In this document: positions 2,417-60,684 of the stretch, piece by piece | Position numbering within the stretch: position 1 is the first letter of the stretch | Layout: each line of letters begins with the position of its first letter | Sequence record: PP968062.1 | Origin: Pseudomonas phage HPP-Temi | DNA: 64,000 bases | Reading direction: 5' to 3' (one strand) | Position numbers and translations under genes: made by a program | The notes under the pieces: generated by a model | The model's database searches: none | The model's input: only the letters and a program-made list of their open reading frames with translations | What the model was told of the DNA's origin: nothing

Positions 2417-3670
2417 TTAGCCCTTGACGCAAACAATCTGACGCAGGGTGTGGACGATCTCAATGAGGTCATCCTGAGCAGCCATTACGTCTTCAATGTT
2501 CTTATAAGCCTTTGGAGTCTCGTCGATCACGTCAATGTCTTTCCGGCATTCTACACCGGCAGTATCACGAGCATGATCTTCAAGAGTGAAAGTCTTAGCG
2601 GCTTGGGTTCGGGACATGACACGTCCTGCTCCGTGCGAACACGAACAGAAGGACTCGCGGTTCCCTTTACCTTTCACGATGAAGCTCTTAGCGCCCATCG
2701 ATCCAGGGATAATACCGTACATGCCTTCATCTGCACGCACAGCGCCTTTACGAGTTACGGATACTTTCGCACCGAAGTGGTTCTCGAACGACACGTAGTT
2801 GTGGTGACAGTTTACAGCAGTAAGGCTAGTGTTGATAGGCCGACCCATGTAGTCAGCCACAGCCTCGATTGTTGCACGCATCATGATCGTACGGTTGAGA
2901 GCAGCGTAACGCTGTGCCCAATGTACAGCCTCGATGTAGTCGCTGTAGTACTTGGTACCTTCCGGCAGATAAGCGAGGTCCTGATCAGGCAGATTGATGT
3001 GGTAAAGCCGCATCTCCTCTTTTGCTTTCTCGATAAAGTACCGACCAATTGCGTTACCGATTCCACGAGAACCCGAATGGAGCATGATCCAAACTCGATC
3101 TTGTTCATCCAGACAGATTTCTACGAAGTGGTTACCAGTACCGAGAGTACCTGCGTGGTTGAAAGCACGGTTAGCAGCCTTACCCAGTTTCGGGTGTTTA
3201 GCCACGATGAGCTTCAGTTCCTCTTCAAGCTTCTTAACCTGAGCTTGGAGCTCCGGTTCGAGTTTCTTGTAAACGAGGTTGAAGTCACTCCATGCGCCAC
3301 GATCATTCGGTCCGCCATTGTCAGTACGACCATGAGGGATCCGAGACTCAATACGGTAACGCAGATGTTGCAAGCCACGAGTCATGTCGTTAGCTGTCAG
3401 ATCAGTCAACTGTGCTGCCATTCCACAGCCAATGTCAACCCCTACCGCAGACGGAATGATTGCACCCCGCGTAGCGATTACGGAACCGATGGTTGCACCG
3501 GTACCAAGGTGGACATCAGGCATTACAGCCAGATGCTTATAAATGAACGGGAGTCCCGCAATGTTCTTCAGCTGACGTTTTGCATCAGCTTCAACAGGGA
3601 CGCCTTTAACCCAAGCTTTAATTGGGAATTCATTTTGTTCGTTCAGCATAACGTATTTTTGAGTAGTCAT
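2417..3670 (-). CDS. rtcB: RtcB-family RNA ligase (3'-phosphate/5'-OH)
   Basis: 417 aa. RtcB signatures HAGTLGTGNHFVEI, HSGSRGIGN, NCHHNY and SHGAGR are all present. Confidence 0.85.
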   Translation of the reverse strand: MTTQKYVMLNEQNEFPIKAWVKGVPVEADAKRQLKNIAGLPFIYKHLAVMPDVHLGTGATIGSVIATRGAIIPSAVGVDIGCGMAAQLTDLTANDMTRGLQHLRYRIESRIPHGRTDNGGPNDRGAWSDFNLVYKKLEPELQAQVKKLEEELKLIVAKHPKLGKAANRAFNHAGTLGTGNHFVEICLDEQDRVWIMLHSGSRGIGNAIGRYFIEKAKEEMRLYHINLPDQDLAYLPEGTKYYSDYIEAVHWAQRYAALNRTIMMRATIEAVADYMGRPINTSLTAVNCHHNYVSFENHFGAKVSVTRKGAVRADEGMYGIIPGSMGAKSFIVKGKGNRESFCSCSHGAGRVMSRTQAAKTFTLEDHARDTAGVECRKDIDVIDETPKAYKNIEDVMAAQDDLIEIVHTLRQIVCVKG

Positions 3671-3806: not shown

Positions 3807-4391
3807 TCATCGGTCCGATTCAACGGACATAGATAACTCTTTATGTTTTCTTCGCCTTTCGACATCGGCGAACCAAGGTCTTACACTGAGCCACATTGCA
3901 GGCCAACTAAGAATAGCAGCTATAGCCATCCATACTGCGCTGAGTAATACCCATGCATCGTTACCATCATCAACATCGCGTGGAGCTATGTCTAGTTGAT
4001 AACCGGTTCCAACGGGGACATGGTGATATGTGTAATCACCGAGCTTGGTTTCGTATACGAAGGGAACACCTTTCATTTTCCCTTCCCAACGACCCTTTAG
4101 CTCGGTATAAACACCGTTCTTGTACTTGTGAGATTCTTCCCATTTCCAGGTCAGTACAACCTGGGTCTTACGTTTGGTAACGTAGTCAGAGAAGAATGAG
4201 TTGTAGACTGCACCACCCATAAATGCTAAGCAGATTAGGTAGAGTACCACACAACGCAGTTTAACCCACTTGGAGATTGGTACATACGGCTCTTGTTTCA
4301 TGGTTATCGTACAGCCGGTTGCGTTTGCATAACCCAAGGGATTCCTTGTGGCCATTGCATATATTGCAGCTGCCTCCGGAGTTATATTCAT
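3807..4391 (-). CDS. hypothetical membrane protein
   Basis: 194 aa with two hydrophobic predicted TM segments (LICLAFMGGAVY..., AWVLLSAVWMAIAAIL...). Confidence 0.4.
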   Translation of the reverse strand: MNITPEAAAIYAMATRNPLGYANATGCTITMKQEPYVPISKWVKLRCVVLYLICLAFMGGAVYNSFFSDYVTKRKTQVVLTWKWEESHKYKNGVYTELKGRWEGKMKGVPFVYETKLGDYTYHHVPVGTGYQLDIAPRDVDDGNDAWVLLSAVWMAIAAILSWPAMWLSVRPWFADVERRRKHKELSMSVESDR

Positions 4392-5215
4392 TTAGGATTC
4401 CCATGGATAAGCTGGAACGTGTCGAACTTGTATTGATCAACGAAGTACCATGCGAGTTCACTCAGCTTAAAGATATCCGGACGTTCGTATTCACCGAAGT
4501 CGGGTTTCTCTTTAGCCAAATGGAAATCGATGAAACGGTCCAATACAGGACAACGATCGATCAAGTCTTGTTCAGTGGAACCTACCTTACAGTTGACCAG
4601 TTCCTGAATACGTTTGTACAGGGTAGGATCAGACAGAATCGGTAGGAGTTCATGGAATACCATCGGTGGATGTTCACGACTAGTCTCAACCCACAATGCT
4701 GCTAACAGTGGACGGAGAGCATAGAAGTATTTCTTCATGCGGACTTTCTCATCCGACAGCCAACGCATCTTGGTTTGCTTGGCCATGGAGATATAGTGCA
4801 TGAAGCTCGATTCGGGAATGAAGTGCTTGATAGCGTAATCACGAATCAGTTTGTAATCCCACTCGATCTTACGGTAAACGATCGGGGAGTTCAACCATTC
4901 CAACAGAGTCGGGTTAGACTTGTAAGCCAGTTGAAGTGTCTTGGTGATACTCCAACCAGCCAGATCGAGTTCCTTGGAAACCATCTCTTCGATGGTGTCA
5001 CGACCTTCGTTATCAACCCGGACATAATGGCTCGGATGGTTAACGTAGATGAAGCGAACATCGTAGTCGCTATTAGTAGAAGCGAAACCCCAACCACGAC
5101 TACCGGACTCACAGGCGTAAATGATCTTTACACCATACTTCTGTTCGATACGAGTTAACTCGGCGTCTATAACTGCACGCATCTCATCACTAACAGGGTG
5201 ACGTGGATCCATCAT
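4388..5215 (-). CDS. Pol-beta-superfamily nucleotidyltransferase (GS-x9-DxD)
   Basis: 275 aa. N-terminal motif YACESGSRGWGFASTNSDYDVRFIY fits hG[GS]x9-13Dh[DE]h of minimal nucleotidyltransferases. Start overlaps the upstream stop (ATGA-type coupling). Confidence 0.5.
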   Translation of the reverse strand: MMDPRHPVSDEMRAVIDAELTRIEQKYGVKIIYACESGSRGWGFASTNSDYDVRFIYVNHPSHYVRVDNEGRDTIEEMVSKELDLAGWSITKTLQLAYKSNPTLLEWLNSPIVYRKIEWDYKLIRDYAIKHFIPESSFMHYISMAKQTKMRWLSDEKVRMKKYFYALRPLLAALWVETSREHPPMVFHELLPILSDPTLYKRIQELVNCKVGSTEQDLIDRCPVLDRFIDFHLAKEKPDFGEYERPDIFKLSELAWYFVDQYKFDTFQLIHGNPK

Positions 5216-5619
5216 TTACCTACCTTTTCAAGTTTGAGTTTCTCTTCATTGCCCGTGTCCAAATACATGAACATCGAATTTCCCAGTAGGTTGTAATACA
5301 TCCAACCTTCCTTAACCACTTGATCGCCATACGTCAGAGGAATGTTCAATTCGTAAATGGCGTCATAAGGGATGACTACAGGATCTTTGTCAGGCTTGTT
5401 GAGGATGAGTGCATCGTCAGTAAGCTCAAGCCATTGCTTACGACTGATGACCCCAAGACCGATACTGAATTCGCTACCTGGGTCTTTCCCATTGAAAATA
5501 CCACAACGGACAGCAGGGTCAACGCGGTCACCAGCGATACAGATTTTCAACGGTTCGGGATTCACACCCATGAGTTCAACAACCAGTTCCAGTTGACGCT
5601 TGAGTTCAATCTTGTTCAC
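5212..5619 (-). CDS. hypothetical protein
   Basis: 135-aa ORF, translationally coupled to its neighbours. Confidence 0.4.
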   Translation of the reverse strand: MNKIELKRQLELVVELMGVNPEPLKICIAGDRVDPAVRCGIFNGKDPGSEFSIGLGVISRKQWLELTDDALILNKPDKDPVVIPYDAIYELNIPLTYGDQVVKEGWMYYNLLGNSMFMYLDTGNEEKLKLEKVGK

Positions 5620-6226
5620 AGTGTAAATTCCTTCGTGTTGTATTGACGTGCAGAGTCAGTCCACCATGTAGGTGTCTGTGCGTAGTAGTACTCACCAAAG
5701 ATACAAGTGGCTAAGGTTTTATCCAAAGCTTCCTGATAAGACAGCTCGCCATCTTTAGTAGCGAAGTGAACCATGTTGTTGAAGCAGGTGATAATGTCAG
5801 CGTTTTCTTTTGTGGAGAAAACAACAGTACCCTTGGCTCCCACTTCGGAATGGATCATCGAGCTCCACGGACGAACACCGCGATCAGTGACCAGATAGAT
5901 ATCTTGTACAGCTGATACGGAAAAGAACGTACGAAGAAGGTTGCTGTAATCGGGTAGGTCTTGCTCGAACAGAATATCGAGGATCTTACAGACCTTATCG
6001 ATCTTCTTCATTTTCTCGGTGTAACGTGCACCGCCATCATTCTCAGTGCAACCGATATTGAAGATGATACTGTAAATGGATTCCACAAGCTTACAGCATT
6101 TGTAGACGTACGGAGTTCCCTTTACTTTAGGAGTCCATACGAAAAGATTGCTCTTTCCTGGATTAGGTTGCTTGAACTGATGGATGCGGTACGGAATACC
6201 TTTTTCAAACAGCAAGAAGTCCATTA
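5616..6226 (-). CDS. hypothetical protein (start moved to the internal Met after the terminator hairpin)
   Basis: The ORF track gives 5616..6383, but that N-terminus reads through the 6252-6275 hairpin. MDFLLFEKGIPY... at 6226 is preceded by GGAGAAAATA-ATG. Confidence 0.45.
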
Positions 6227-6251
6227 TTTTCTCCAAAGGAAATAAGGAAAT

Positions 6252-6275
6252 AAAGCCTCCCCGAAGGGAGGCTTT
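6252..6275. terminator. hairpin aaagcctccc-cgaa-gggaggcttt, bidirectional
   Basis: Perfect 10-bp stem, 4-nt loop, T-run after it on both strands. Confidence 0.6.
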
Positions 6276-6634: not shown

Positions 6635-8068
6635 TTAAACAGCAACTTTACCAGCAATGTGCGGATGGAACTGGTAATCCAGGATCTCGTAATCTTCACG
6701 AGTAATATCCAGGAACGGCTTACCTTTGGCCTCAGGCTTGAAGCGGATGGTAGGAGTAGGATAAGTATTGCGGGAACGTTGCAGTGTAACTTGTTCTTCA
6801 TGGTTACTGTAGATATGGCAATCGCCACCAGTCCAGATGAACTCTTCTGCTACCATGTTAAACTGATTCGCCAACTGATGAGTCATCAACGAATAGAACG
6901 TGATGTTGAACGGATTCCCAAGGAAGTTATCGGAAGATCTTTGATAGAGCTGACAGCTGATCCCACGGGAAGGAGCTTTATGCTCATCCAACCAAGCTAC
7001 TACAGCCTCATCAGTAGCGGCCGCATCACCACGCCAAATCCTCAGATGGGCTTTGACTTGTTCTGCGTTACCGAACGGAGGTTGACCACGAGTAGTTCCA
7101 CCACTGTGTTGGTCGTGATAAGCATCCTCTTCGAATTGGCTTTGATCCAGAGCCTGCACTCTTTCGTCTACGGTCAGCTTACGAGTCCAGAACTGAATGA
7201 AGGCATGACACGGAGGCAATGCTTGATCTTCAACCAGACGAGGATCCCAGGCGCAGATGATAAGACGACGACTATCTGGGTTATGTTTAAGTTGCCACAG
7301 AAGTTCTTGAACCTGATCCACACGGCGACGGATAACACATTCATCTTTCGTGTAGTCTTCGCCAGGTACGTCAACTACGAACTTAAAGCCGCGCTTCTCG
7401 TAATTAGCCCAGTCTACTTTAGGAATGATACGAACATCATCGATATCACGCCAGGTTTTACCATAGACCGGACCAAGATCACCGCCAACTAAACGGAAGG
7501 CAGACAACAGACCATCGCTGTCTTTAATCACGATCTTTGCATCACCGATGACAATACGATATACACGTAGAGCCATTCCATAGTAGTCGAATGCATCGGG
7601 ACCAGGACCGAAACGACTTACATCGGCCCACGTCTTCAGATTAATTAGAAGTAGTGCCGGTTTGTCCTGTTCAGGATCAATCCACTTCCAATCGATATCA
7701 CCGATCTCATTGCTGAAATGCATCTCAAACGGAATGTTCTTGAACTTCTTCTGAACAGCTGTAGTCAGCCATTCGTCGGAAACGCGTTCGAATACTTCGG
7801 TACCCGGTTTAACCCATTCGTTCCAGATGGTGACGTTCTTGCTCAGGAGATATTCTAGGCGAGTGTCACCAGACTTCATCCAGTTGAGTTCTTCTTCAAC
7901 GGAAGGCAAGTGGATCTTCTTGGTGGTTACTACCGGAAGGTTTCCGTTACGGAGATCATAACGGAACTGCCTACCGAACAGAGAGGTCGTACCAGTGCCG
8001 GTACGATCCCCTTTGAATACACCGTACTTCTGTGTATCTTCCAGTAACTGTAGGTATTGATGCATCAA
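6635..8068 (-). CDS. thyA: Thymidylate synthase family (ThyA or dUMP hydroxymethylase-like) with three large insertions
   Basis: 477 aa. DRTGTGTTSLFGRQFRYDL, LPVVTTKK, DLGPVYGKTWR, PPCHAFIQFW (catalytic Cys), SCQLYQRSSDNFLGNPFNI and TGGDCHIYSNH align with E. coli ThyA. About 112 aa, 25 aa and 72 aa are inserted relative to the 264-aa enzyme. Confidence 0.8.
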   Translation of the reverse strand: MMHQYLQLLEDTQKYGVFKGDRTGTGTTSLFGRQFRYDLRNGNLPVVTTKKIHLPSVEEELNWMKSGDTRLEYLLSKNVTIWNEWVKPGTEVFERVSDEWLTTAVQKKFKNIPFEMHFSNEIGDIDWKWIDPEQDKPALLLINLKTWADVSRFGPGPDAFDYYGMALRVYRIVIGDAKIVIKDSDGLLSAFRLVGGDLGPVYGKTWRDIDDVRIIPKVDWANYEKRGFKFVVDVPGEDYTKDECVIRRRVDQVQELLWQLKHNPDSRRLIICAWDPRLVEDQALPPCHAFIQFWTRKLTVDERVQALDQSQFEEDAYHDQHSGGTTRGQPPFGNAEQVKAHLRIWRGDAAATDEAVVAWLDEHKAPSRGISCQLYQRSSDNFLGNPFNITFYSLMTHQLANQFNMVAEEFIWTGGDCHIYSNHEEQVTLQRSRNTYPTPTIRFKPEAKGKPFLDITREDYEILDYQFHPHIAGKVAV

Positions 8069-16945: not shown

Positions 16946-19535
<2,590 letters not shown>

Positions 19536-49900: not shown

Positions 49901-50744
49901 CCTTATTCTGCAATTCAAGGTTAGCTTCTTGAACTTTAACCAGATCACGGATACCCATGTAGGTACGGAACTGGAGCTCAAGACCTTTACGTTGAATTCC
50001 ATAGTTGACTTGTTCGTTATATCCTACAAGACGAGTTAGACTGTCTACAGCCATGCCCATCGAGCGGGACATAAAGTCGAAGCGCCCAGCGCTAACTTTA
50101 TCACGAATACCACGTTCTGCACGTTCAACCGCAGCTCGCGATATTGCACCCTGTTCACTACGCTGGAAGTTTTCTTTACTTACCAGTGTGTTTTGATCCA
50201 GAGCGGCTTTAATTACGTTTGCATCATCCTGTTCTTGACGACTGCGACGAATAGCGATTTGATCCCGTTGGGAATCAACCTCGTATTGGTACTGCTCAAC
50301 TTTCCGATTAAGACTATCGGAAATATTATCGTACAAGGCGTTTGGAATGCGATCTTTTAACTGAGGTAGATAATCCTGTGCTTTACGACCAAGATAGTCA
50401 AGGTCGGATGCATTAACTCGTTCAACCGTATCTTTGATATCGGTTACAGAAGCCATTACATCGTCATAGGCGCCAAACAAACGTGCAAAGCCATCCGGCG
50501 CAGCACTGCGCAAGAAGTTTCTTACGATGTCTTTGGTTTTCAATCCACCGAGGAAGCCCTCTTTCAGACCCGATTTGAATTCGGTAATTGGATCGCCAGG
50601 TTTGGCTCCAGGACCGAGATCATCAAACAGGTCATCCAGCTCATTCAGGTCAAGTACGCCAATTCGCCCCTGGGCATTTGTCCCAGCAGGTTTAGGCAAC
50701 CTGGTCTTTCTTGTAGCCATGGTCAACTCCATCGATATAAACAA
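43953..50744 (-). CDS. giant virion-associated protein (2263 aa) with C-terminal lytic transglycosylase (SLT) domain
   Basis: The SLT motif [22 protein letters not shown]...[12 protein letters not shown] lies near residues 1880-2050. Long Ala/Gly/Lys-rich low-complexity segments. The true start may be MATRKTRL at 50717. Confidence 0.75.
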   Translation of the reverse strand: [2263 protein letters not shown]

Positions 50745-50787
50745 TCATATCGTTTAGCTTTTTGTAACCCCTAAGAGGAAATTTGAA

Positions 50788-52440
50788 ATGAAGAAGGCTC
50801 TAGTCCCTTTCAACATTGACCTACTGATCCCCACAAAGGCTCAGCTTACAATGTTGGGGCAAGTAACTAGCCATGAGATCTTCGAAGGTACCGGTGGTAA
50901 CTTTCACGAGAAAGGTCTGTTCTCCGTAGAAATCTTCGGACGAATTGGATCCTCTGAACGTGAAGGTCGCTTCGGTTATATCAACATGGGTCTTGAAATT
51001 ATTCACCCGGTCATCTATCGTAACCTCATTAAGTTGAAGGCATTCTACGAAGATATCATCCTGGGTAAAGCTTTTGCTGTATTTGATCCGTCGATTAAAG
51101 ATTTCGTTCGTTCTAACGAGCTCGAAGGTAGAACTGGCTATGCCTTCTTCTTTGATAATTGGAAGAAGATCGACTTCGGTGAAACTAAGTCCTCTATTCG
51201 TCGTGTACGGGTTGAGCTGATGAAGAAGTACATGAGTAACTGTACCTTCAAGAACCTGCTCGTTATTCCCGCTGCATATCGTGAGGCCGAGATCGATGTT
51301 GATGGTCGTGTATCCATGGACGAGGTTAACGAACACTATCGTTACATGTTGAACCAGTCTTACGGTGTACCTGAATACTTCGGTCCCAATGATGACCTGA
51401 GCATTTATGACCGTAAACGGACTTCAATGCAGTTGACTGCTCTGGCGATCTATAACCACTACGAAAACCTGTTGTCTGGTAAAGGTGGATATATTCAACA
51501 GAAGTGGGCATCTCGACGTGTATTCAACGGTACTCGTAACGTTATCAGTTCGTTGGATACTAACGCAGCTGATCTCGACCAACCCAACCGTCCCAAGTTT
51601 AAAGATGCTGTAGTCGGTATTTATCAAGCAGCCGTATCGGTTAAGCCTAAAACTATTTATCATCTCCGGAATGGTGTTGTAGGTCAGGTATTCGACAGTC
51701 TGTCTAACCGTGTAGAACTGATAAACAAAAAGACCCTGAAACTTGAATGGGTTAACATCAGTAACGAAGAGATGGACCTTTGGGGTACACCAGAAGGTCT
51801 GGAACGTGTTATCGGTGAACTGAAGGTAATTGAGAAGCGGTCTCGTGCTATTGAGATCGGTGGTTATTACCTGGCTCTCGTGTACCTCGATGACAAACAG
51901 AACTTCAAGGTCTTCCGTGACATCACTGAAATGCCTAAGAATTTGGATCACAAATTCGTTCGTCCTATCTCTTATGCAGAGTTGATTTACCTGAGCGGAT
52001 TACCTATGTGGAAAAGAAACTCCGCATTCGTAACTCGTTATCCCGTTGAGAACTATAACAGTTCTATCCCTGTCAAGATGTACGTTAAGACCACCGTTAA
52101 AGGTGAGATGCGTTATCCACTGGGTTGGGATTGGGAACGTGATACCAATGCCGAAATCGCTCTTGAGTATCCGATCATCACTATCAACGAGCCTGCACAA
52201 TGGCACGACTCGACATCTATCTCTCCGTCCATTCTTGCTCCTCTTGACGCAGACTTCGACGGTGACACTGTGTCGTTCAACGCCGTGTATTCCAAAGAGG
52301 CAATTGAAGAATCTGATAAGTTCTTCAAATCTCGTCTAGCCTATATAAAGGCTGGTGGTGGTCTCGCATTCAGTGTCAACATCCACACGCTTAACCTAAC
52401 TCTCCGGTACATGACTGGGGAACCGAAAAGTAGGGATTAA
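50788..52440 (+). CDS. multisubunit RNA polymerase beta-prime-like subunit, N-terminal fragment
   Basis: 550 aa. NEPAQWH (like NRAPTLH), LDADFDGDTVSFNAV (like NADFDGDQMAVH) and ASRRVFNGTRNVISS (like GKRVDYSGRSVI) are present. Confidence 0.6.
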   Translation: MKKALVPFNIDLLIPTKAQLTMLGQVTSHEIFEGTGGNFHEKGLFSVEIFGRIGSSEREGRFGYINMGLEIIHPVIYRNLIKLKAFYEDIILGKAFAVFDPSIKDFVRSNELEGRTGYAFFFDNWKKIDFGETKSSIRRVRVELMKKYMSNCTFKNLLVIPAAYREAEIDVDGRVSMDEVNEHYRYMLNQSYGVPEYFGPNDDLSIYDRKRTSMQLTALAIYNHYENLLSGKGGYIQQKWASRRVFNGTRNVISSLDTNAADLDQPNRPKFKDAVVGIYQAAVSVKPKTIYHLRNGVVGQVFDSLSNRVELINKKTLKLEWVNISNEEMDLWGTPEGLERVIGELKVIEKRSRAIEIGGYYLALVYLDDKQNFKVFRDITEMPKNLDHKFVRPISYAELIYLSGLPMWKRNSAFVTRYPVENYNSSIPVKMYVKTTVKGEMRYPLGWDWERDTNAEIALEYPIITINEPAQWHDSTSISPSILAPLDADFDGDTVSFNAVYSKEAIEESDKFFKSRLAYIKAGGGLAFSVNIHTLNLTLRYMTGEPKSRD

Positions 52441-52442
52441 CC

Positions 52443-55400
52443 ATGCGTTTGAAAATTCATCAGTTTCTGAAGAACTACAGCCTTCGAAACTCCGGCGAAC
52501 TATTGCGTCCGCGTTTGTTCCCGTTAGCGAAGCTGGAACTGCCTCTTGAGGTAGTATATCAGTTCCTTGATGACAACGCTGCTGTAAAGGGTCCGAGTCA
52601 ATCGGACCCCCTCTTTGCCAAGCTGCAAGGAAAGGTGTTCATTGAGCACGTTACACAGCTGGAGACTCTTGATGGTAACGCTCGGCGTACTTCGCTTATT
52701 CCGACTACCCTTGAAGCAGACTTCCGTCGTCAGCACCGTTTCTTCAAACCACTGCGTAAAGATGCGGCTGTAAAGCTTAACACACAGAACGTTGCTGTAG
52801 TCAACTACAGCATGCTGAACCCGCTTTGGAAATACCAAGCCAACTTCAAGTCGAACTGGTATCGCTGGAGCAACAATACTGCTACCTTCTGGAAAGGTGT
52901 AGCAGATATGCATAAACGTTTCGGCTGGAACCAATTCATCGAACTCCATATCCCGGAATCCATTCCGACGTTTAACGAGTTCAAGATGTTGGAGCGTGGT
53001 ACCACTCAGGCATTGCTTGAGAAGTTCCGTACCAATGCAGCACTGAACGTTTTTGATCTGTATCGTTTCCTCGGTGAAAACCGTGCTTCTTCTTATCTGT
53101 CTACTTTGCCGAAAGAAGCATACGAGAAGATTAACTTCCTGATTCGTGTACAGAACAACTTCTTCGTTATTAACCTGGGTCAACTGGAACAATGGCGCGA
53201 TGCTCCGGAAGTTATTGCCGAGCAAGAAACTGTAGCCACTGAAAGCTTCGTTGATGAACTGGGTCTTGAAGTCTTCTATAAACCTGACGTATTACAACGT
53301 CGCATGATCAGCCTGTTGACTACTCTCGTTGAGTACAACAATGGTAACGATACTCTCATGGAGGTCGAACCAGAGGCACCTAAGATCACCGATATGGTTG
53401 AACCCGAAGACAAGTCCACTGACGAAGAAGAAGAAGCTGAAGAAGTTACTGAGCGTGCAGAAGAAGCTGAGGAAGGTGTCGATACAGATGCTATCGATGA
53501 TACATCCGAATCTGGTTCTAATGTTAGCTCCCTGCTTGACCTGGGTATGCTCGAAGTTGTATTTGAGCCGCCACCCGAGTCCGAGCTTGAGAAGACTACT
53601 CTTGTCATCGAGAAAGATCCGCTTGAGACAGCAGAAATTGCTAAAGCACCTACTCTCAAAGTAGAAACTGCTCCGGTAACTAAATCGATTATCCCAGCTT
53701 TCAGTAGCGGTGATGCGTTGGTTGATCCGGTTGGTCAGAAAGCTTATGACCTGTACCAAGTCGGTATGATCTCTGCCCGTGCATTTGAACAGGCTGTAGA
53801 TGACTCGGCTATGTATAAGTCTATTCCGGATCCGTTTGGTTCGGGTAAGACTATTGCAGAAGCAATGACATATGAAAAATCTGACTTCGTAATTCCATCT
53901 GAACAATTCGCTGACAAAACCACCATCACTGACAAGTCGATGCTGGGTGCAGTTCACAAAGCGATGATGCGCAAGTACACGAAGACTCTTCTACCGAAAG
54001 ACATCATGCAATCTATCCTGTCCATTCAGGCTCAGGGTGTAGCTGTTACTGATGTGCGTATGGAAGAAGTCCGTGATGCGATGAACCACTACCAATCGTT
54101 CACTGTTACTGTGAAACCGATTCGTGGTCGTCCTTCTCAACTGCGTTTCCGTATTCCGGTTATTGACCGGGATGGTCGTTTCCGTTCCAATGGTGTTACT
54201 TATCGTCAACGTCTGCAACGCGCGGATATTCCGATTCGTAAAGTCAACCCACTTAAGGTTGCACTCACCAGCTATTACAACAAGACTTTCGTAAATCGTT
54301 CTGAGCGTGCTGAGAACAACTACGATACTTGGCTGATCCGTCAGATCGGTGTACGTGCTCGTGATAACAATGACGTGTCGGTAACTGATGTACGTTATGC
54401 TGAACTGGACCAAGCTCAATTCGTTCTGCCTCGGGTATACTCTGCTCTGGGTCGTGCTTACCGTTCGTTCAAGAATGGTGCGAATGAGTTCTACTTCAAG
54501 TTCGACGATCATGCCGAGTACTTCCACAAGACCTACGGGATTTCCGTAGAAGCGCTTGAGAAGGATGGAATGGTTGTTGTGGGTTCCCATAACCGTCTAC
54601 CGATTTTGGTTGACCAAGGTTCTCAGTTCTACGTTAAAGAAGGTAACGATCTCGAACCGATGGGGACGATGATTGATATCCTGGGTCTGAACCAAGTGAA
54701 AGCTCCTCTGGAAGCAATCCTTGTTTCTGTGGCCAACAAAGAACTACCCCTCGGTTTCATCTTGGGTTATCGTCAAGGTCTGTCTGGTCTACTGGATACG
54801 CTTGGCGTTCAATATCAAAGTCATCCTCGTGGTACTCGTATTAGCGTTAGCCCCGATGACTACACTCTGGCATTCTCTGACGAGATCCTGGTGTTCAGTC
54901 GTCAAGACTACCGTGCTACTCTGGTACTCGCTGGCTTGAAGCGTTATCATCAATCTCTGAAGAAGTTCTCTCGTTGGGATTTCGATCGACGTGACGTCTA
55001 CTTCCGTCTACTAGAGGAAGCTGGTCTCTCTGCACGTTATACTCGTGAGATCGATGGCCTGTTTACTTCCTTCGTTGACCCGATCACTAAAGGTCTGCTT
55101 GAAGAGATGGGAGAGCCGACTGATTTCCAAGGTCTGCTATACCGCTCTGTAGAGCTGCTGACTAATGACTGGTCTCCTGCCGAGGTAGACGGTGCATACA
55201 TGCGCTATCGCGGCTATGAACGTATGGCTGGGGCTATCTATGGCAGTCTGAACCGTGCTGTTCGTATATACAACAACCGTGAAGGTTCTGCCGATCAACA
55301 GATCGTCATGGATCAACACGAAGTATGGCGTAAGATTGCATCTGACCCGACCGTTGCTACTATTGAAGACTCGAACCCTATCGCTAACTTGCGCGAGCAA

Positions 55401-55664
55401 GAAGCCATGACCTACCGTGGTGATGGTGGCCGTGGGCCGGACTCGATGGTTGCCCGTACACGTATCTATCACGAGTCTGATGTGGGCGTTGTATCTGAAT
55501 CTACTGTTGACTCTGGTGACGTGGGTGTAATTGCCTATCTGTCTCCTGATGCCAACTTCAACAGCATGCGTGGTACTACCCGTATGTTCGAGAAAGGCAA
55601 AGACGGTACGGCTAAGATGTTGTCTACTGGTGCACTCACTGGTGTAGCTACAACCAACGATGAT
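52443..55664 (+). CDS. RNA polymerase beta-like subunit, exon 1 (ends at the intron)
   Basis: Translationally coupled to the upstream gene (TAAccATG). The C-terminal TYRGDGGRGPDSMVARTRIYHESDVGVVSESTVDSGDVGVIAYLS aligns to beta region D ([39 protein letters not shown]). Has an acidic insertion. The 3' boundary is approximate. Confidence 0.5.
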
Positions 55665-56003
55665 TGAGGTTATTGAATCGGAAAGTCTTTTCAGATTTGA
55701 GAAACCTTTGGTCCCAATGAATAGCGATATTCATTTGGAATCTCCCTTAATTGCTGGAACCTCCTTAGAGCTAATCTAACCACTGCGAGTCGAAAGACAA
55801 AGCCAAGGTTTGAAAATAGATTAGATTGGACAATCAGCAGCCAAGCTCCGTATAGGAGAAGGTTCAACGACTAACCGCTTATCACGGTGTACCTGCCAAG
55901 TGGTGGGGAAATAGGGAGCCTCTCAAGTAGAGGAAGATATAGTCTCCTCTTTAGGGAAACCTAAAGCAGTCGAAAGACGGAATTGATCTAACGAATCAAT
56001 TTG
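55665..56003 (+). ncRNA. group I self-splicing intron (about 340 nt, no internal ORF)
   Basis: Core elements: P aattgctggaa (~55757), Q aatcagcagcc (~55840), R ggttcaacgactaa (~55867), S aagatatagtctcc (~55934). P with Q and R with S are mutually complementary. Boundaries are approximate (+/-20 nt) and were chosen so that the length is a multiple of 3, the 5' site follows a U and the 3' site follows a G. Confidence 0.75.
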
Positions 56004-57152
56004 AAGACAAGGCCGAAACGTATCAACTTCGTTTCTATTCAGCAACAGCAAGGTATCTATGCAGACGGTTACGAGGTTACTCCTCTCCGTACTGGCTACG
56101 AGCAGATCATCGCTCAACGCACTAGCTCTATCTTCGCATCCGCTGCTGAACAAGATGGTGAAGTTATTGCTGTAGATGCTCACGGTATTACCGTCAAGTA
56201 TGCCGATGGGGAAATCTTCAGTTCTCAACTGGGTACCGTTCATGGTACCGCTGCGGGTGTAAACTATCCGCACACTCTGACCACTGGCCTTAAGAAAGGT
56301 GATAAGTTCAAACGTGGTGATACTCTGGCTTTCAATAGCAAGTATTTCACTGAGGACCGCTATACTCCTGGACAGGTTCTGTGGAAAGCAGGTGTGATGG
56401 TTCGTGTTGCATTCTGCGATAACCTTGACACGCTTGAAGACGGATCGGTAATCAGCCGTGACGTAGCGATCAAGCTGAATACTCAGACTACTGACATTAA
56501 GAACATCACTGTTCGCTTTGATCAGGCAATCGAGAATTTGGTCAAGGTTGGGGATCACGTAGACTTGGATTCAATTCTATGTACTATTCAAGACCCCGAA
56601 ATGGCCAAGAACTCTCTGTTTGGTGCCGCGAGTATTGAAACCCTGAAGAAACTTTCCGCTAACGCTCCGCGAGCGAAAGTTGTAGGGACTATCTCTAAGA
56701 TCGAATGTTACTATCATGGTGACATCGAAGATATGTCTGACAATCTTCAGAAGGTAGCTCGTGCTTCTGATAAAGAGAGAGCCGATAGGGCCAAGTCGTT
56801 GAACGAACCGGAATTCACTGGTGAAGTCGACGCATCCTTCCGTGTTAAAGGTCAGATGCTTGAACCTGACAACATGGTTATCCGAATCTACATCGACCAT
56901 GATATCCCTTGTGGTACTGGTGACAAAGGTGTAGTTGCGAACCAGATGAAAACTGTGTTCTCTCGGGTAATGGATGGTCGGAACGAGTGTGAAGATGGTA
57001 CTCCGATTGGTCTGATCTTCGGTAACACATCGGTCGAAGAACGGATGGTCATGTCCCCTAAATTGATTGCGACTACCACAATCTTGCAGCAAGCACTTTC
57101 TCAGCATATAGCTGCGCTCTATCGAGGAACCACAAATGCAAAATCAAAGTAA
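56004..57152 (+). CDS. RNA polymerase beta-like subunit, exon 2
   Basis: Same reading frame as exon 1. Contains AFNSKYFTEDRY (like AFMPWNGYNFEDSI) and GTGDKGVVANQ...ECEDGTPIGLIFGN...RMVM (like [33 protein letters not shown]). Confidence 0.5.
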   Translation, partial: KTRPKRINFVSIQQQQGIYADGYEVTPLRTGYEQIIAQRTSSIFASAAEQDGEVIAVDAHGITVKYADGEIFSSQLGTVHGTAAGVNYPHTLTTGLKKGDKFKRGDTLAFNSKYFTEDRYTPGQVLWKAGVMVRVAFCDNLDTLEDGSVISRDVAIKLNTQTTDIKNITVRFDQAIENLVKVGDHVDLDSILCTIQDPEMAKNSLFGAASIETLKKLSANAPRAKVVGTISKIECYYHGDIEDMSDNLQKVARASDKERADRAKSLNEPEFTGEVDASFRVKGQMLEPDNMVIRIYIDHDIPCGTGDKGVVANQMKTVFSRVMDGRNECEDGTPIGLIFGNTSVEERMVMSPKLIATTTILQQALSQHIAALYRGTTNAKSK

Positions 57153-57330
57153 CAACGTAGTACTCAGTCAGAACATCGCCGTTCTGACTGCTGCTGCCGA
57201 ACTTGGAGCCGAAGCTTTGCTTCGCTCCATCGGCGGCGACACCTCGGCAGCTACTCTAGAAGGTGAGTATCTGACCAAAGAAGATATCCAGGCGGCTATC
57301 GTTGCCCGTATGTGCAAATACCTCGGTTAA
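57136..57330 (+). CDS. hypothetical small protein
   Basis: 64-aa ORF overlapping the exon 2 end by 17 nt. Confidence 0.25.
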   Translation: MQNQSNNVVLSQNIAVLTAAAELGAEALLRSIGGDTSAATLEGEYLTKEDIQAAIVARMCKYLG

Positions 57331-57342
57331 TTAGGAGTCAAC

Positions 57343-59043
57343 ATGTTTAATCCCGAAACTCTGGACGCTGTCCGTGATGCGGCCCAAGCGTTCACTGAAC
57401 AAGAACGTGTTCTGACTATTCCGAACCCCGAGTTCCCTCTGGCTGTCTATGCTGACGGTTTCAACTGTGAATCCGAAGGCAACAAAGTTGCAATGTCCGA
57501 TGAACTGGCTGCTTCCGTAGAGTCTCACTTCATCGAAAGCAACGTAGAAGCTCCCGAGAACGTGAACGAAGAGCGCGAAGCAATCATCAGCAATATGCAC
57601 ACCGCTATTGCTAAGATTCAGTTCAACACTCAGAACGTTATCATCCCGGCTATCAAAGCCATGGCTACCGATTACGCTAGCCGTCAAAACGTAAGTGGTC
57701 AAGCAGACTGCGACGTTAGCACTTTCAACTACGATCCGATCCACAACGATCCTCGTCTGGTGAACCACATTCAGACCCGCTATGCCAAAGTACGTCCTCT
57801 TCCGGAATATCGTACTTTCATGCTGCGTCCTATTGATGCCGCTGCTATCATCGAGATGGTATCGATCAATAACCCGCACCTGGATCAAGAGCAGGTTACT
57901 GAATGGGCTCTGAAGATCCCGGCTCAACGTGTAGAGAACGTATGGAGTGAACTGTTCGGTACCGCTCGTGGTCTGACTGTTTCTAACCTGAGCTTCATTA
58001 ACCCGAACGCCTTCCCGTTCAATCTGGATGAACTGACCCTTGGTTACTTCATCTGTGGTCACTACATCGACAATCCTCAGGAAGTTCCTGGTGAGTCTGT
58101 GACTTCTGATGAATGGGAGCAAACTGTACGTCTGCTTCACGAAATGCTCGGTTTCTACATCATCCGTGCCTATGAGAATCGTCTGGAGATGCGTGAGTCC
58201 AATACTCTCGTTCTGCGTTACGAAGCTCATCGTCCGGTTGAGAACCGTCGTGTACTCGTTACTCTGAACGGTGACGTAGCTGAAAGCTGGCTGGTTAAAG
58301 GTGGTAGCGTAGAAGCTCTGCTGGGTGCTGCTATTGATGGCGGTAACGTTGTTCATGCTCAAGGCATTGATGCCCGTGCTGAACATTACATCCGTCGTTG
58401 GACTGCTACCTACCCGCTGATCAAACAGGCTGCTCTGGACTACGCTGAAAGCCGTCGTCGTCAAGACGTAATCGATACCTTCCTGACCCATTGCGGTGAT
58501 GGTCCTCTTCGTGAGATGAACATCGGTAACGTACGCGAGATTCTGGCTGCTGCAATGCGTTTCGTTCGTAGTGAAGACCTCGATAATCCGTACTGTGTAT
58601 TCAGTAACCTGATCTGCCGTACCTATTACACTGAGCCGATGTACAAAATGTACCTCGACACTATCGATGAGTATGGTCAGAACTTCCCTGCCGCTGAACT
58701 GCGTGAGCTGAACACCCAGGCTCTGATCTCTCTGATCGCTATCTTCCAGGCTCAGCAGATCAAAGTAGAAATGTTCAATCCTGATGTTGATCCTAACGCT
58801 ACTCTTCCTCAACCGGAAGCTGTTCCGGAAGAACTCTCTGAACCGACTGGTGAAGAAGTATCCGAAGCAGTAGGTGATGCTATTGAAGGTGAAGGCCCTC
58901 TGGCTGAAACTCCGGAAGTAGAAGACGAAGAAGATCCTTACGCTGACACGCCTGCTGAAACCGAGACTGAAGTAGTCGAAGTAGAAGAGGAAAAAACCAG
59001 TGAAGAAGAAACTGAATCGGAAACTGAAGAAGAACAAGCTTAA
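57343..59043 (+). CDS. hypothetical protein with highly acidic C-terminal tail
   Basis: 566 aa. AGGAG SD. The C-terminus has an EEVSEAVGDAIEGEG...ETEEEQA acidic repeat region. Confidence 0.45.
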   Translation: MFNPETLDAVRDAAQAFTEQERVLTIPNPEFPLAVYADGFNCESEGNKVAMSDELAASVESHFIESNVEAPENVNEEREAIISNMHTAIAKIQFNTQNVIIPAIKAMATDYASRQNVSGQADCDVSTFNYDPIHNDPRLVNHIQTRYAKVRPLPEYRTFMLRPIDAAAIIEMVSINNPHLDQEQVTEWALKIPAQRVENVWSELFGTARGLTVSNLSFINPNAFPFNLDELTLGYFICGHYIDNPQEVPGESVTSDEWEQTVRLLHEMLGFYIIRAYENRLEMRESNTLVLRYEAHRPVENRRVLVTLNGDVAESWLVKGGSVEALLGAAIDGGNVVHAQGIDARAEHYIRRWTATYPLIKQAALDYAESRRRQDVIDTFLTHCGDGPLREMNIGNVREILAAAMRFVRSEDLDNPYCVFSNLICRTYYTEPMYKMYLDTIDEYGQNFPAAELRELNTQALISLIAIFQAQQIKVEMFNPDVDPNATLPQPEAVPEELSEPTGEEVSEAVGDAIEGEGPLAETPEVEDEEDPYADTPAETETEVVEVEEEKTSEEETESETEEEQA

Positions 59044-59112: not shown

Positions 59113-59835
59113 ATGAACGTTAGGCAATTAACTCGTGATGCTCAACGTGTCAACGCGAATCTGATTGAACTGGAAGATGGTGGTATTGCTACTAACCTTC
59201 CATGCAAGATCCAGATCCCTGAACGTTTTGCTGCAAAGAACCTAGCTGTGCTGGGTAGTGAAGTCTTCATCTTCGGGTTCTTCCCGATTATCATGAATGA
59301 AGAGTTCTATGCGGTGAACAACACCATCGCCATGATGCGCATTCTCCCGAGCTCTACTGAACGAGTTGTTGTGGAGAATGAACCTTACTACGAATTCAGT
59401 TTCGAGAAAGGGGACAAAGTTTTCTATTCGACCCATCTGGTAGTTAACGATACGTTGACTTACTACATGTACGACGAGTTCGTATCTAAAGGAAACATTC
59501 CTTGGTACATGAACTACTACGACATGGCTAAGATGTTCGAGACTGCGAAGGAACACGCAGATACCTTCATTGGTGGTCGTTCTATCATCGAGTTGATTAT
59601 CTCTACTATCGCTCGTGATCCGGATGATATGACAAGATTGTATCGCCACATTCTGGCGCGACATGAAGACGTTAAAAATAAACCACCGGTAACCGTGCCT
59701 TTCCGTTCGGTTATCTGGAACACCTCTGATACCACCTCGAAACTTAACGGTGCTTACTTCAGTGACGCTATTAACTCCGCTCTGGTGAACCCCAGCGAGA
59801 AGGTAGAAGTAATTGAAGAACTGTTGAGGACGTAA
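59113..59835 (+). CDS. hypothetical protein
   Basis: 240-aa ORF. Confidence 0.45.
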   Translation: MNVRQLTRDAQRVNANLIELEDGGIATNLPCKIQIPERFAAKNLAVLGSEVFIFGFFPIIMNEEFYAVNNTIAMMRILPSSTERVVVENEPYYEFSFEKGDKVFYSTHLVVNDTLTYYMYDEFVSKGNIPWYMNYYDMAKMFETAKEHADTFIGGRSIIELIISTIARDPDDMTRLYRHILARHEDVKNKPPVTVPFRSVIWNTSDTTSKLNGAYFSDAINSALVNPSEKVEVIEELLRT

Positions 59836-59850
59836 CACGGAGTTGCAGCA

Positions 59851-60684
59851 ATGCATCCTTTGGCACAATCTTCTTTTGGTGTCCAAAATTCTCCGCAGAA
59901 CCAAGTTCGTATCGGTTGCACCATGCTAGCCGGTACAGACAAAAAAGGAATTCTTGCGCCGAATGCGGACGGTTATTACACTGTAGTTCTGGGTGCCTAT
60001 GGTACACATAACTCCGCTGGTATGTTCTATGACGAAGCCAGTGGCGTTGCCATGTTCGATCCGAACTCTTCTTTGATGCGGCGCCTTAAGAAAGGTGTAC
60101 TCTTCATGGAGTTCAAACATCCGGAACCGTTTACAGATCTGATGATCGATGGTCGCGTTGTTCGTCAACCGATGGATGATCGTCAATACCTACAACGTAT
60201 TCGTATGATCGACGATAACCGGGTATGTGCACACATCCGTGCTCTGACTATTGTCCCCGGTAAGAATGAGAATGGTAAGACCGTTAAGATGGTCGTAGGC
60301 GAAGTTAAGCCTTACGGTCCCTTCGGTCACATTTTCAAAGAGTCGCTGGATAACCCGAGTATCAATACTTATTGCTCCGTACGTTCTATCACTCAAGATG
60401 ATGTAATGCGTGGCATCAAGTACACTCGTGAAATCGCCACATGGGACTTCGTAGGTGAAGGCGGTATCTACATCGCTAACAAGTATACCTCTCCTGCACT
60501 GGAAAGCTTCTCTGATACTGAAGTCATCATCACTCCCGCTACCCTGTGGAAGATGGAAGACGAAGCTAAGAAGCGTGCTAACATCGGTATGGAATCTGAT
60601 CCTAACCTTGATGTTACTGACCTGATCCAACAACTAGGTTGGTCTCGTCGTAAGCCTGTACGTGTACCTGCTTACATGCGATAA
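59851..60684 (+). CDS. hypothetical protein
   Basis: 277-aa ORF, last of the plus block, followed by an A-tract+hairpin terminator. Confidence 0.45.
   Translation: MHPLAQSSFGVQNSPQNQVRIGCTMLAGTDKKGILAPNADGYYTVVLGAYGTHNSAGMFYDEASGVAMFDPNSSLMRRLKKGVLFMEFKHPEPFTDLMIDGRVVRQPMDDRQYLQRIRMIDDNRVCAHIRALTIVPGKNENGKTVKMVVGEVKPYGPFGHIFKESLDNPSINTYCSVRSITQDDVMRGIKYTREIATWDFVGEGGIYIANKYTSPALESFSDTEVIITPATLWKMEDEAKKRANIGMESDPNLDVTDLIQQLGWSRRKPVRVPAYMR

Follow-up and report, generated by a model that had tools for sequence, protein, structure and literature searches.

The 64,000-nucleotide (nt) stretch of DNA analyzed here, referred to as the window, comes from Pseudomonas phage HPP-Temi (PP968062.1), and the interval of interest spans positions 50,788 to 57,152, where an earlier note had recognized a multisubunit RNA polymerase (RNAP) with fragmented subunits, represented by three polypeptides. 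The best explanation of this interval, to which we assign a probability of about 0.88, is that it encodes two subunits of the virion RNAP (vRNAP) of a phiKZ-like phage, and that the gene for the beta-like subunit is interrupted by a self-splicing group I intron lacking an endonuclease. The description in terms of three polypeptides has to be revised, since the second and third open reading frames (ORF2 and ORF3) are exons of one gene for a protein of 1453 amino acids (aa), and the 348-nt group I intron between them, at 55665-56012, had been overlooked. The enzyme, the intron site and the kind of intron have all been described before, and the window adds another allele.

The beta-like gene appears in two pieces when ORFs are called conventionally. 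ORF2 encodes 1074 aa and ORF3, opened by a TTG codon, 383 aa, while the 333-nt stretch that lies between them holds no long ORF. The two ORFs divide a single family profile, phrog_3148 (1424 positions), with ORF2 covering positions 2-1050 and ORF3 positions 1051-1423. Alignment to the intron-less gene of phage PA1C fixes the boundaries of the insertion: exon 1 ends with ...AAC GAT GAT at U55664, and exon 2 begins at C56013 (CCG AAA CGT...). Removal of the intron restores ...TTNDD|PKRINF... in frame and gives a spliced product of 1453 aa, the same length as the PA1C protein (QBX32367.1). The two proteins align with zero gaps and share 93.7% of their residues, compared with a nucleotide identity of about 85%, and both exons are free of frameshifts; comparison with PA1C thus points to exons that are evidently under purifying selection. 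The predicted peptide across the spliced junction is MLSTGALTGVATTNDDPK, and the intron-less DNA version of the locus would read AACGATGATCCGAAACGT.

The intervening sequence matches the Rfam group I intron family RF00028 over the full model (positions 1-253 of 253) at 55681-55966; at 70.5 bits it lies above the gathering threshold of 50 (E 1e-17), and this is the sole Rfam match across the 64-kb window. The last intron base is G56012 and the exon base at position -1 is U55664. In a minimum-free-energy fold, P1 is a helix of 7 base pairs (CGAUGAU/UGAG/GUUAUUG) in which U55664 and G55669 form the U.G pair that closes it at the splice site. The P, Q, R and S core elements are in place (Table 1), and so are both P7 strands (ACGACUA at 55867 and UAGUC at 55940). 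An RNAalifold alignment of 12 introns (those of the window, PhiPA3, PA7 and 201phi2-1, with eight from IMG/VR contigs) yielded 72 consensus pairs, 49 of which show compensatory double changes, and the helices predicted from it are P2.1, P3, P4, P5, P5a, P6, P6a, P7.1, P7.2, P8, P9, P9.1 and P9.2. Of these consensus pairs, 67 were checked in the window intron, and 64 of them are standard; alignment offsets account for the other three. Given the presence of P7.1 and P7.2, we take the intron to belong to an IA-like subgroup.

The ribozyme carries no endonuclease ORF: leaving aside the ORFs of the two exons and an antisense one of 211 aa (start at 56558, end at 55923), which overlaps the intron 3' end, the longest ORF that touches it encodes 58 aa. 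An intein or a programmed frameshift at the ORF2/ORF3 break was rejected in view of stops in all three forward frames of the 348 nt and of the complete ribozyme that they form. A co-conversion tract was sought in the exon flanks by comparison with PA1C, and gave no signal, since each flank is 84% identical to PA1C and the gene shows this same level elsewhere. The 18-mer GGACAATCAGCAGCCAAG, taken from the core of the intron, was dropped as a tracer because it matched more than 120 unrelated viral contigs and represents a generic phage group I core sequence.

Table 1. Coordinates of the features of the interval and of its flanks (positions in the window).
Feature	Position	Strand	Basis
Beta-prime N-terminal half gene (ORF1; orthologue of phiKZ gp180, PhiPA3 gp212 and 201phi2-1 gp275), 550 aa, uninterrupted	50788-52440	+	PHROG, profiles, Foldseek
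SRRVFNGTRNVI in ORF1 (aa 242-253)	51511-51546	+	
NEPAQWH in ORF1 (aa 467-473)	52186-52206	+	
DADFDGD, catalytic Mg2+-binding loop of beta-prime (canonical NADFDGD; aa 487-493)	52246-52266	+	aligned to bacterial NADFDGD
ORF2, 1074 aa	52443-55667	+	
Exon 1 of beta-like gene (phiKZ gp178 orthologue), codons 1-1074, ends ...TTNDD	52443-55664	+	PHROG, PA1C colinearity
GAT GAT, codons of invariant D1073 and D1074, immediately 5' of the splice site	55659-55664	+	invariant in alignments A2 and A5
Group I intron, 348 nt, P7.1/P7.2 helices, no endonuclease ORF; begins with in-frame TGA, ends with G	55665-56012	+	Rfam, PA1C alignment
P, Q, R and S core elements of the intron	55749-59, 55832-42, 55862-73, 55934-44		
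ORF3, 383 aa, TTG start ('MKTR')	56001-57152	+	
Exon 2 of beta-like gene, codons 1075-1453 and stop, starts PKRINF...	56013-57152	+	PHROG, profile A2
GDKGVVANQMK motif in exon 2	56919-56951	+	
gp181-like transglycosylase-bearing protein, 2263 aa	43953-50744	-	
gp177-like protein	57343-59043		
Virion structural protein	59113-59835		
Head maturation protease	59851-60684		

The gene structure can also be read as a further split, within the beta-like subunit, into polypeptides of 1074 and 383 aa that are translated separately, with three RNAP fragments in the interval. ORF2 does stop at 55665-55667 and a TTG-start ORF does open at 56001; in several database records each part is a gene of its own, as with PhiPA3 genes 211 and 209, and exon-1-sized proteins make up 11 of the 45 homologue clusters. 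However, the sequence that would separate the two polypeptides is a complete group I ribozyme above the curated Rfam threshold, with helices supported by covariation; once it is removed, the invariant DD-x-KR reappears in frame and the sequence can be matched, residue by residue, to the PA1C gene, which is uninterrupted. The break would moreover hit the most conserved stretch of beta, within the HDD-x-NR motif. The TTG at 56001 falls inside intron helix P9.2, and no ribosome-binding sequence of the GGAG/AGGA type was found upstream of it. Finally, the 201phi2-1 orthologue is annotated as a joined coding sequence (CDS), with proteomics in its favor and two spliced reads that match the intron. 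A split beta is accordingly considered very unlikely, and the correct annotation of the interval comprises two genes, with beta as a joined CDS (52443..55664, 56013..57152); a three-gene call would create a false 'extra split' of beta.

Assignment of the spliced protein to the beta family relies on profile A2, built from 16 full-length beta-like homologues, which matches the Thermus thermophilus beta subunit with E 2.6e-14. Residues 1049-1174, spanning the exon junction, align to beta 535-656 (FLEHDDANR...), and residues 1357-1424 align to beta 822-891 (GDK...NKG). When the AlphaFold2 (AF2) model of exon 1, with a predicted local distance difference test (pLDDT) score of 77, was searched with Foldseek, it retrieved chain 7s00_c of the AR9 non-virion RNAP (nvRNAP; E 1e-6), chain E of the phiKZ nvRNAP (9rjs/8que; about 2e-6) and Escherichia coli beta (2e-4). 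Exon 1 also contains an acidic low-complexity insert at about aa 300-420, in which 24 of the 50 residues from aa 307 are D or E; AlphaFold2 gives aa 302-368 of ORF2 a pLDDT below 50, and this stretch is predicted to be disordered. These results bear out the earlier view of a beta-like, strongly diverged gene with acidic insertions.

The upstream gene, ORF1, is the N-terminal half of beta-prime. It matches phrog_2986 end-to-end, with 733 bits and aa 1-543 lying on positions 1-538 of the 539-position profile. Its homologues number 618, most of those among the matches listed being about 550 aa long, and the nearest homologue cluster in a public protein collection is 89% identical. An exact look-up of the exon-1 protein of the beta-like gene in public data returned no record. 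A profile built from 22 ORF1 homologues and compared with PDB sequences matches the beta-prime-N chain of the AR9 nvRNAP (7s00/7s01, E 1e-14), as well as residues 448-516 of E. coli beta-prime, around NADFDGD (E about 3e-5). The top Foldseek matches of the AF2 model (pLDDT 78) were all beta-prime chains, of which 7s00_d was the best (E 5e-17); bacterial and cyanobacterial chains were in the list, including the naturally split N-terminal half of cyanobacterial beta-prime. ORF1 ends shortly after the catalytic DxDGD loop, which occupies aa 487-493 of 550.

The features described in the earlier note lie at the coordinates given, and the strings that it had quoted from this 550-aa protein are all present. 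DADFDGD holds as a catalytic signature: D489 does not vary among the 22 homologues, and each of F490, D491, G492 and D493 is kept in 90% or more of them. NEPAQWH does not, as its columns show no conservation among the same homologues. The ORF1 stop codon (TAA, 52438-52440) is separated from the ORF2 start codon (ATG, 52443) by a 2-nt spacer, and an AGGGA lies upstream; translational coupling between the two genes is therefore plausible from their arrangement.

In phiKZ, early genes are expressed by the injected vRNAP, which is made up of gp178, gp149, gp180 and gp80 (PMC8287921; PMC12908238). By orthology, and by synteny with phiKZ gp181, gp180, gp178, gp177, gp176 and gp175, the enzyme of the window is this virion-packaged RNAP. 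The annotation notes of PhiPA3 and 201phi2-1 equate ORF1 and the beta gene with phiKZ gp180 and gp178, which serve as the reference orthologues, and 201phi2-1 gp275, the orthologue of ORF1, is annotated as 'identified using mass spectrometry'. Homology thus supports the presence of the window proteins in virions.

The same genes might instead belong to the non-virion (middle/late) RNAP, of the phiKZ gp55/gp71-73 type, a reading that we consider highly improbable. Both phiKZ-like enzymes consist of split beta and beta-prime fragments, and the best matches among solved structures are the nvRNAPs of AR9 and phiKZ (7S00/7S01; 7OGP, 8QUE and 9RJS), which have the same split beta/beta-prime layout; these come out best because no virion-polymerase chain is among the PDB matches listed. 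The nvRNAPs nevertheless differ in being paralogous, with only 10-14% identity to the window proteins, in not being packaged in virions and in having a fifth, sigma-like subunit. In the profile search, ORF1 reaches 733 bits with phrog_2986 but only 27 bits with phrog_2987, a second beta-subunit family. The subunits with which PhiPA3 and 201phi2-1 notes equate these genes, gp180 and gp178, are vRNAP subunits (PMC11620839, PMC8287921), and the neighbors of the two genes are virion and head genes, namely those for the gp181-like 2263-aa transglycosylase protein, a virion structural protein and the head maturation protease. The phage-type attribution made earlier, to a split RNAP of the phiKZ-like jumbo phages, is in line with these orthologies and with the fact that only Pseudomonas jumbo phages were matched.

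Several points weigh against the interpretation favored here. A Pfam search of all three ORFs returned nothing relevant, and a single-sequence phmmer search of ORF1 against the PDB returned nothing. Placement in RpoB/RpoC depends on profiles, either phage-specific or custom-built, and on predicted folds whose global template-modeling scores are low (0.2-0.5), although the family profiles, the custom profiles against the PDB and the AF2-model searches all agree in placing the proteins there, as the earlier note had proposed. The C-terminal pieces of beta-prime and beta were not seen in the window and are placed outside it. PHROG scans of 20 further window ORFs, including every non-overlapped ORF of at least 249 aa, gave helicase, ligase, thymidylate synthase, RtcB, kinases and structural proteins and no other RNAP piece, in agreement with the earlier expectation that the remainder of beta-prime lies elsewhere; likewise, no other polymerase gene is annotated in PA1C 175000-224900, which corresponds approximately to window positions 14900-64000. 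As for the intron, that it splices in this phage is something we infer, and in an ONT-cappable-seq (Oxford Nanopore) study, splicing of the predicted phiKZ introns was not detected under the conditions tested (PMC10914365), so related introns have not all been shown to be active.

This last point, together with the absence of an endonuclease, which in the homing cycle is the stage before intron decay, could favor a decaying, splicing-dead remnant, with a beta gene that is a pseudogene or yields the truncated 1074-aa product only; yet all core elements are intact and nearly all of the checked pairs are standard, both exons bear the marks of purifying selection without frameshifts, and exon 2 holds the catalytic GDK...K motif, presumably indispensable, which leaves this possibility scarcely credible.

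Comparison with characterized phages shows that the insertion site is shared. PhiPA3 contains the same two genes in the same order (gp212, followed by gp211/gp210/gp209), and the group I intron in its vRNAP beta gene encodes the HNH homing endonuclease gp210 (Birkholz 2024, PMC11620839). This nuclease nicks the gp178 gene of phiKZ, which has no intron, and thereby gives PhiPA3 an advantage in co-infection (PMC11620839). The PhiPA3 intron, which scores 67.8 bits in Rfam, is inserted at the same position as that of the window, directly after GAT GAT, as checked here at the 5' splice site, and the two ribozymes are about 75% identical over 297 nt (window intron positions 47-343). They differ in size and content. 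The PhiPA3 intron has 1352 nt, with the gp210 ORF near its 5' end, whereas the 348-nt window intron has a short P2 hairpin there; positions 1-46 of the latter show no similarity to PhiPA3 and no endonuclease remnant.

In 201phi2-1, an ORF-less group I intron of 336 nt (Rfam 87.4 bits) occupies the same site of the same gene (gp273/274, EU197055). The GenBank entry for gp273/274 is a joined CDS, described as 'interrupted by a mobile...' element, and its protein was found by mass spectrometry. Two long reads spliced exactly at the intron, in addition to earlier proteomics, have been reported for this phage (PMC11512511). The coding sequence is about 70% identical to that of the window at the nucleotide level. 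The P2 region of the 201phi2-1 intron shares sequence with the stretch flanking the PhiPA3 endonuclease ORF, and the intron is without the long P5 extension. The PA1C beta gene, in contrast to that of the window, is uninterrupted, and its codon equivalent to the end of exon 1 is GAC instead of GAT. The six other closest records are apparently intron-free as well, judging from the 95% of the interval that aligns with them in two pieces.

A further relative of the intron is found in a different polymerase gene. In PA7, of the phiKZ genus (L002), a group I intron at about 3951-5346 (Rfam 85.3 bits) carries an HNH endonuclease ORF and lies at N|ADFDGD of the nvRNAP beta-prime-N gene, in the gp55/gp56 region. 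Window positions 55741-55852 are 88% identical to the PA7 intron over 111 nt, although the latter sits in a different polymerase gene, and the P5 extension of the window intron, nearly identical to that of this phiKZ-genus intron, is closer to it than to that of PhiPA3. By sequence similarity, the window ribozyme is a mosaic, with a P5 extension like that of the phiKZ-genus nvRNAP beta-prime intron and the remainder like that of PhiPA3, which hints at recombination between introns of different polymerase genes.

A survey of 78 IMG/VR loci encoding gp178 homologues revealed an insertion at aa 1074/1075 in 15 of them, comprising ten insertions of 1.1-1.4 kb and five ORF-less ones of 336-375 nt. 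Seven of the 11 loci scanned with Rfam exceeded the group I threshold at this DD site, and the insertions of about 1.4 kb in L141, L186, L196 and L197 had no Rfam match at the gathering threshold. The last codon of exon 1 is GAT in 13 of 14 occupied alleles, but among the empty alleles in 29 of 62 (Fisher p = 0.002), an excess in keeping with the need of group I splicing for U at position -1.

Insertions were also observed elsewhere in these polymerase genes. Three loci (L138 at 4704-6252, L140 and L165) have an insertion of about 1.55 kb at aa 595/596 of the beta gene (LQRAD|IPIRK), which holds an ORF of 384 aa; its product shows repeated CPxHG...C..C units and, in the C-terminal part, YRYDFFLP...IEYQGQQHF, a stretch that looks like a Vsr-type endonuclease. 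The L138 insertion gave no Rfam group I match at the gathering threshold, and insertions of this type may represent a different kind of mobile element. One locus (L201:7323-7623) contains, besides its DD-site insertion, a second group I intron in the beta gene, of 353 nt and 74.3 bits, at GDK|G (aa 1378/1379). The vRNAP beta-prime-N gene, orthologous to ORF1, is interrupted at aa 489-491, within the DADFDGD loop, in three of about 70 relatives (L182, L198 and L158), and that of L182 (L182:2406-2734) is a group I intron of 398 nt, with 90.7 bits in Rfam.

The two genes and the intron can be integrated into a working scheme. The 550-aa half of beta-prime carries the Mg2+-binding DFDGD loop, and the 1453-aa beta-like subunit the beta-side catalytic motifs NDD-PKR and GDK-x7-K. 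For the latter to be made by standard group I self-splicing, the pre-mRNA would fold into the ribozyme, and an exogenous guanosine would attack after U55664, which the guide GUUAUUG would keep in P1; attack by the released 5' exon after the terminal G56012 would then ligate the exons in frame. On RNA that remains unspliced, ribosomes would stop at the TGA formed by the first three intron bases. By analogy with phiKZ, both proteins would join orthologues of gp80 (C-terminal beta-prime) and gp149 (C-terminal beta), encoded outside the window, and the assembled complex would be packaged in the capsid, injected and put to the transcription of early genes.

Without a homing endonuclease, the intron cannot move on its own, and it occupies the site that PhiPA3 gp210 recognizes in intron-less alleles. 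It is conceivable, if rather doubtful, that the endonuclease-free intron is retained as a shield, splitting the recognition site of gp210-type nucleases and making the beta gene immune to PhiPA3-style interference without the cost of a nuclease. If this were true, the clade would provide a natural pair of intron-plus and intron-minus alleles for testing a 'disarmed' intron as a shield against competitors. The system already has experimental traction: during co-infection, the PhiPA3 endonuclease acts at this DD site of the vRNAP beta gene (PMC11620839). Among relatives, it is occupied by both armed and disarmed introns, and a disarmed intron with apparently intron-free nearest relatives offers material on the cycle by which nucleus-forming phages gain and lose homing introns. 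The general picture of jumbo-phage transcription is unchanged by the finding.

All 44 megablast matches to the interval, in a database of 50,697 phage records, are Pseudomonas jumbo phages. The nearest records are PA1C, phiLBG22, BRkr, phiHQ, HHBS36_1 and PS119XW, which align in two pieces with 95% of the interval at 84.5-84.7% nucleotide identity, while PhiPA3 and 201phi2-1 match its 3' part. On these comparisons, the source of the window is a phiKZ-like (nucleus-forming) Pseudomonas jumbo phage. By order, the neighborhood corresponds to the phiKZ gp181-gp175 block, according to PHROG and to synteny with the PhiPA3, 201phi2-1 and PA1C annotations, those of PhiPA3 and 201phi2-1 tying the flanking genes to phiKZ gp177, gp176 and gp175. 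The PA1C group (PA1C, PS119XW, BRkr, phiHQ, HHBS36_1 and phiLBG22) has a gene order identical to that of the window. The reverse-strand ORFs of the interval all overlap long forward ORFs and were treated as spurious. A scan of 50500-57600 for sigma-70 promoters and intrinsic terminators gave counts at or below chance and was uninformative, as expected because the phage uses its own polymerases.

Other features of the window were noted in passing. The gp181-like transglycosylase protein is encoded by one ORF here and by two overlapping CDSs in PA1C (189064-195833), where the two-CDS annotation may reflect a frameshift or a sequencing error. A thymidylate synthase ORF of 477 aa on the minus strand (6635-8068) has positions 1-154 of Pfam PF00303 stretched across aa 3-295, which implies, from the alignment, some 140-200 aa of extra sequence within the enzyme; an Rfam scan of this ORF showed no intron. 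The minus strand of the window also encodes an RtcB RNA ligase (2417-3670), an NAD-dependent DNA ligase (16946-18994) and a ribose-phosphate pyrophosphokinase-like protein (1481-2368).

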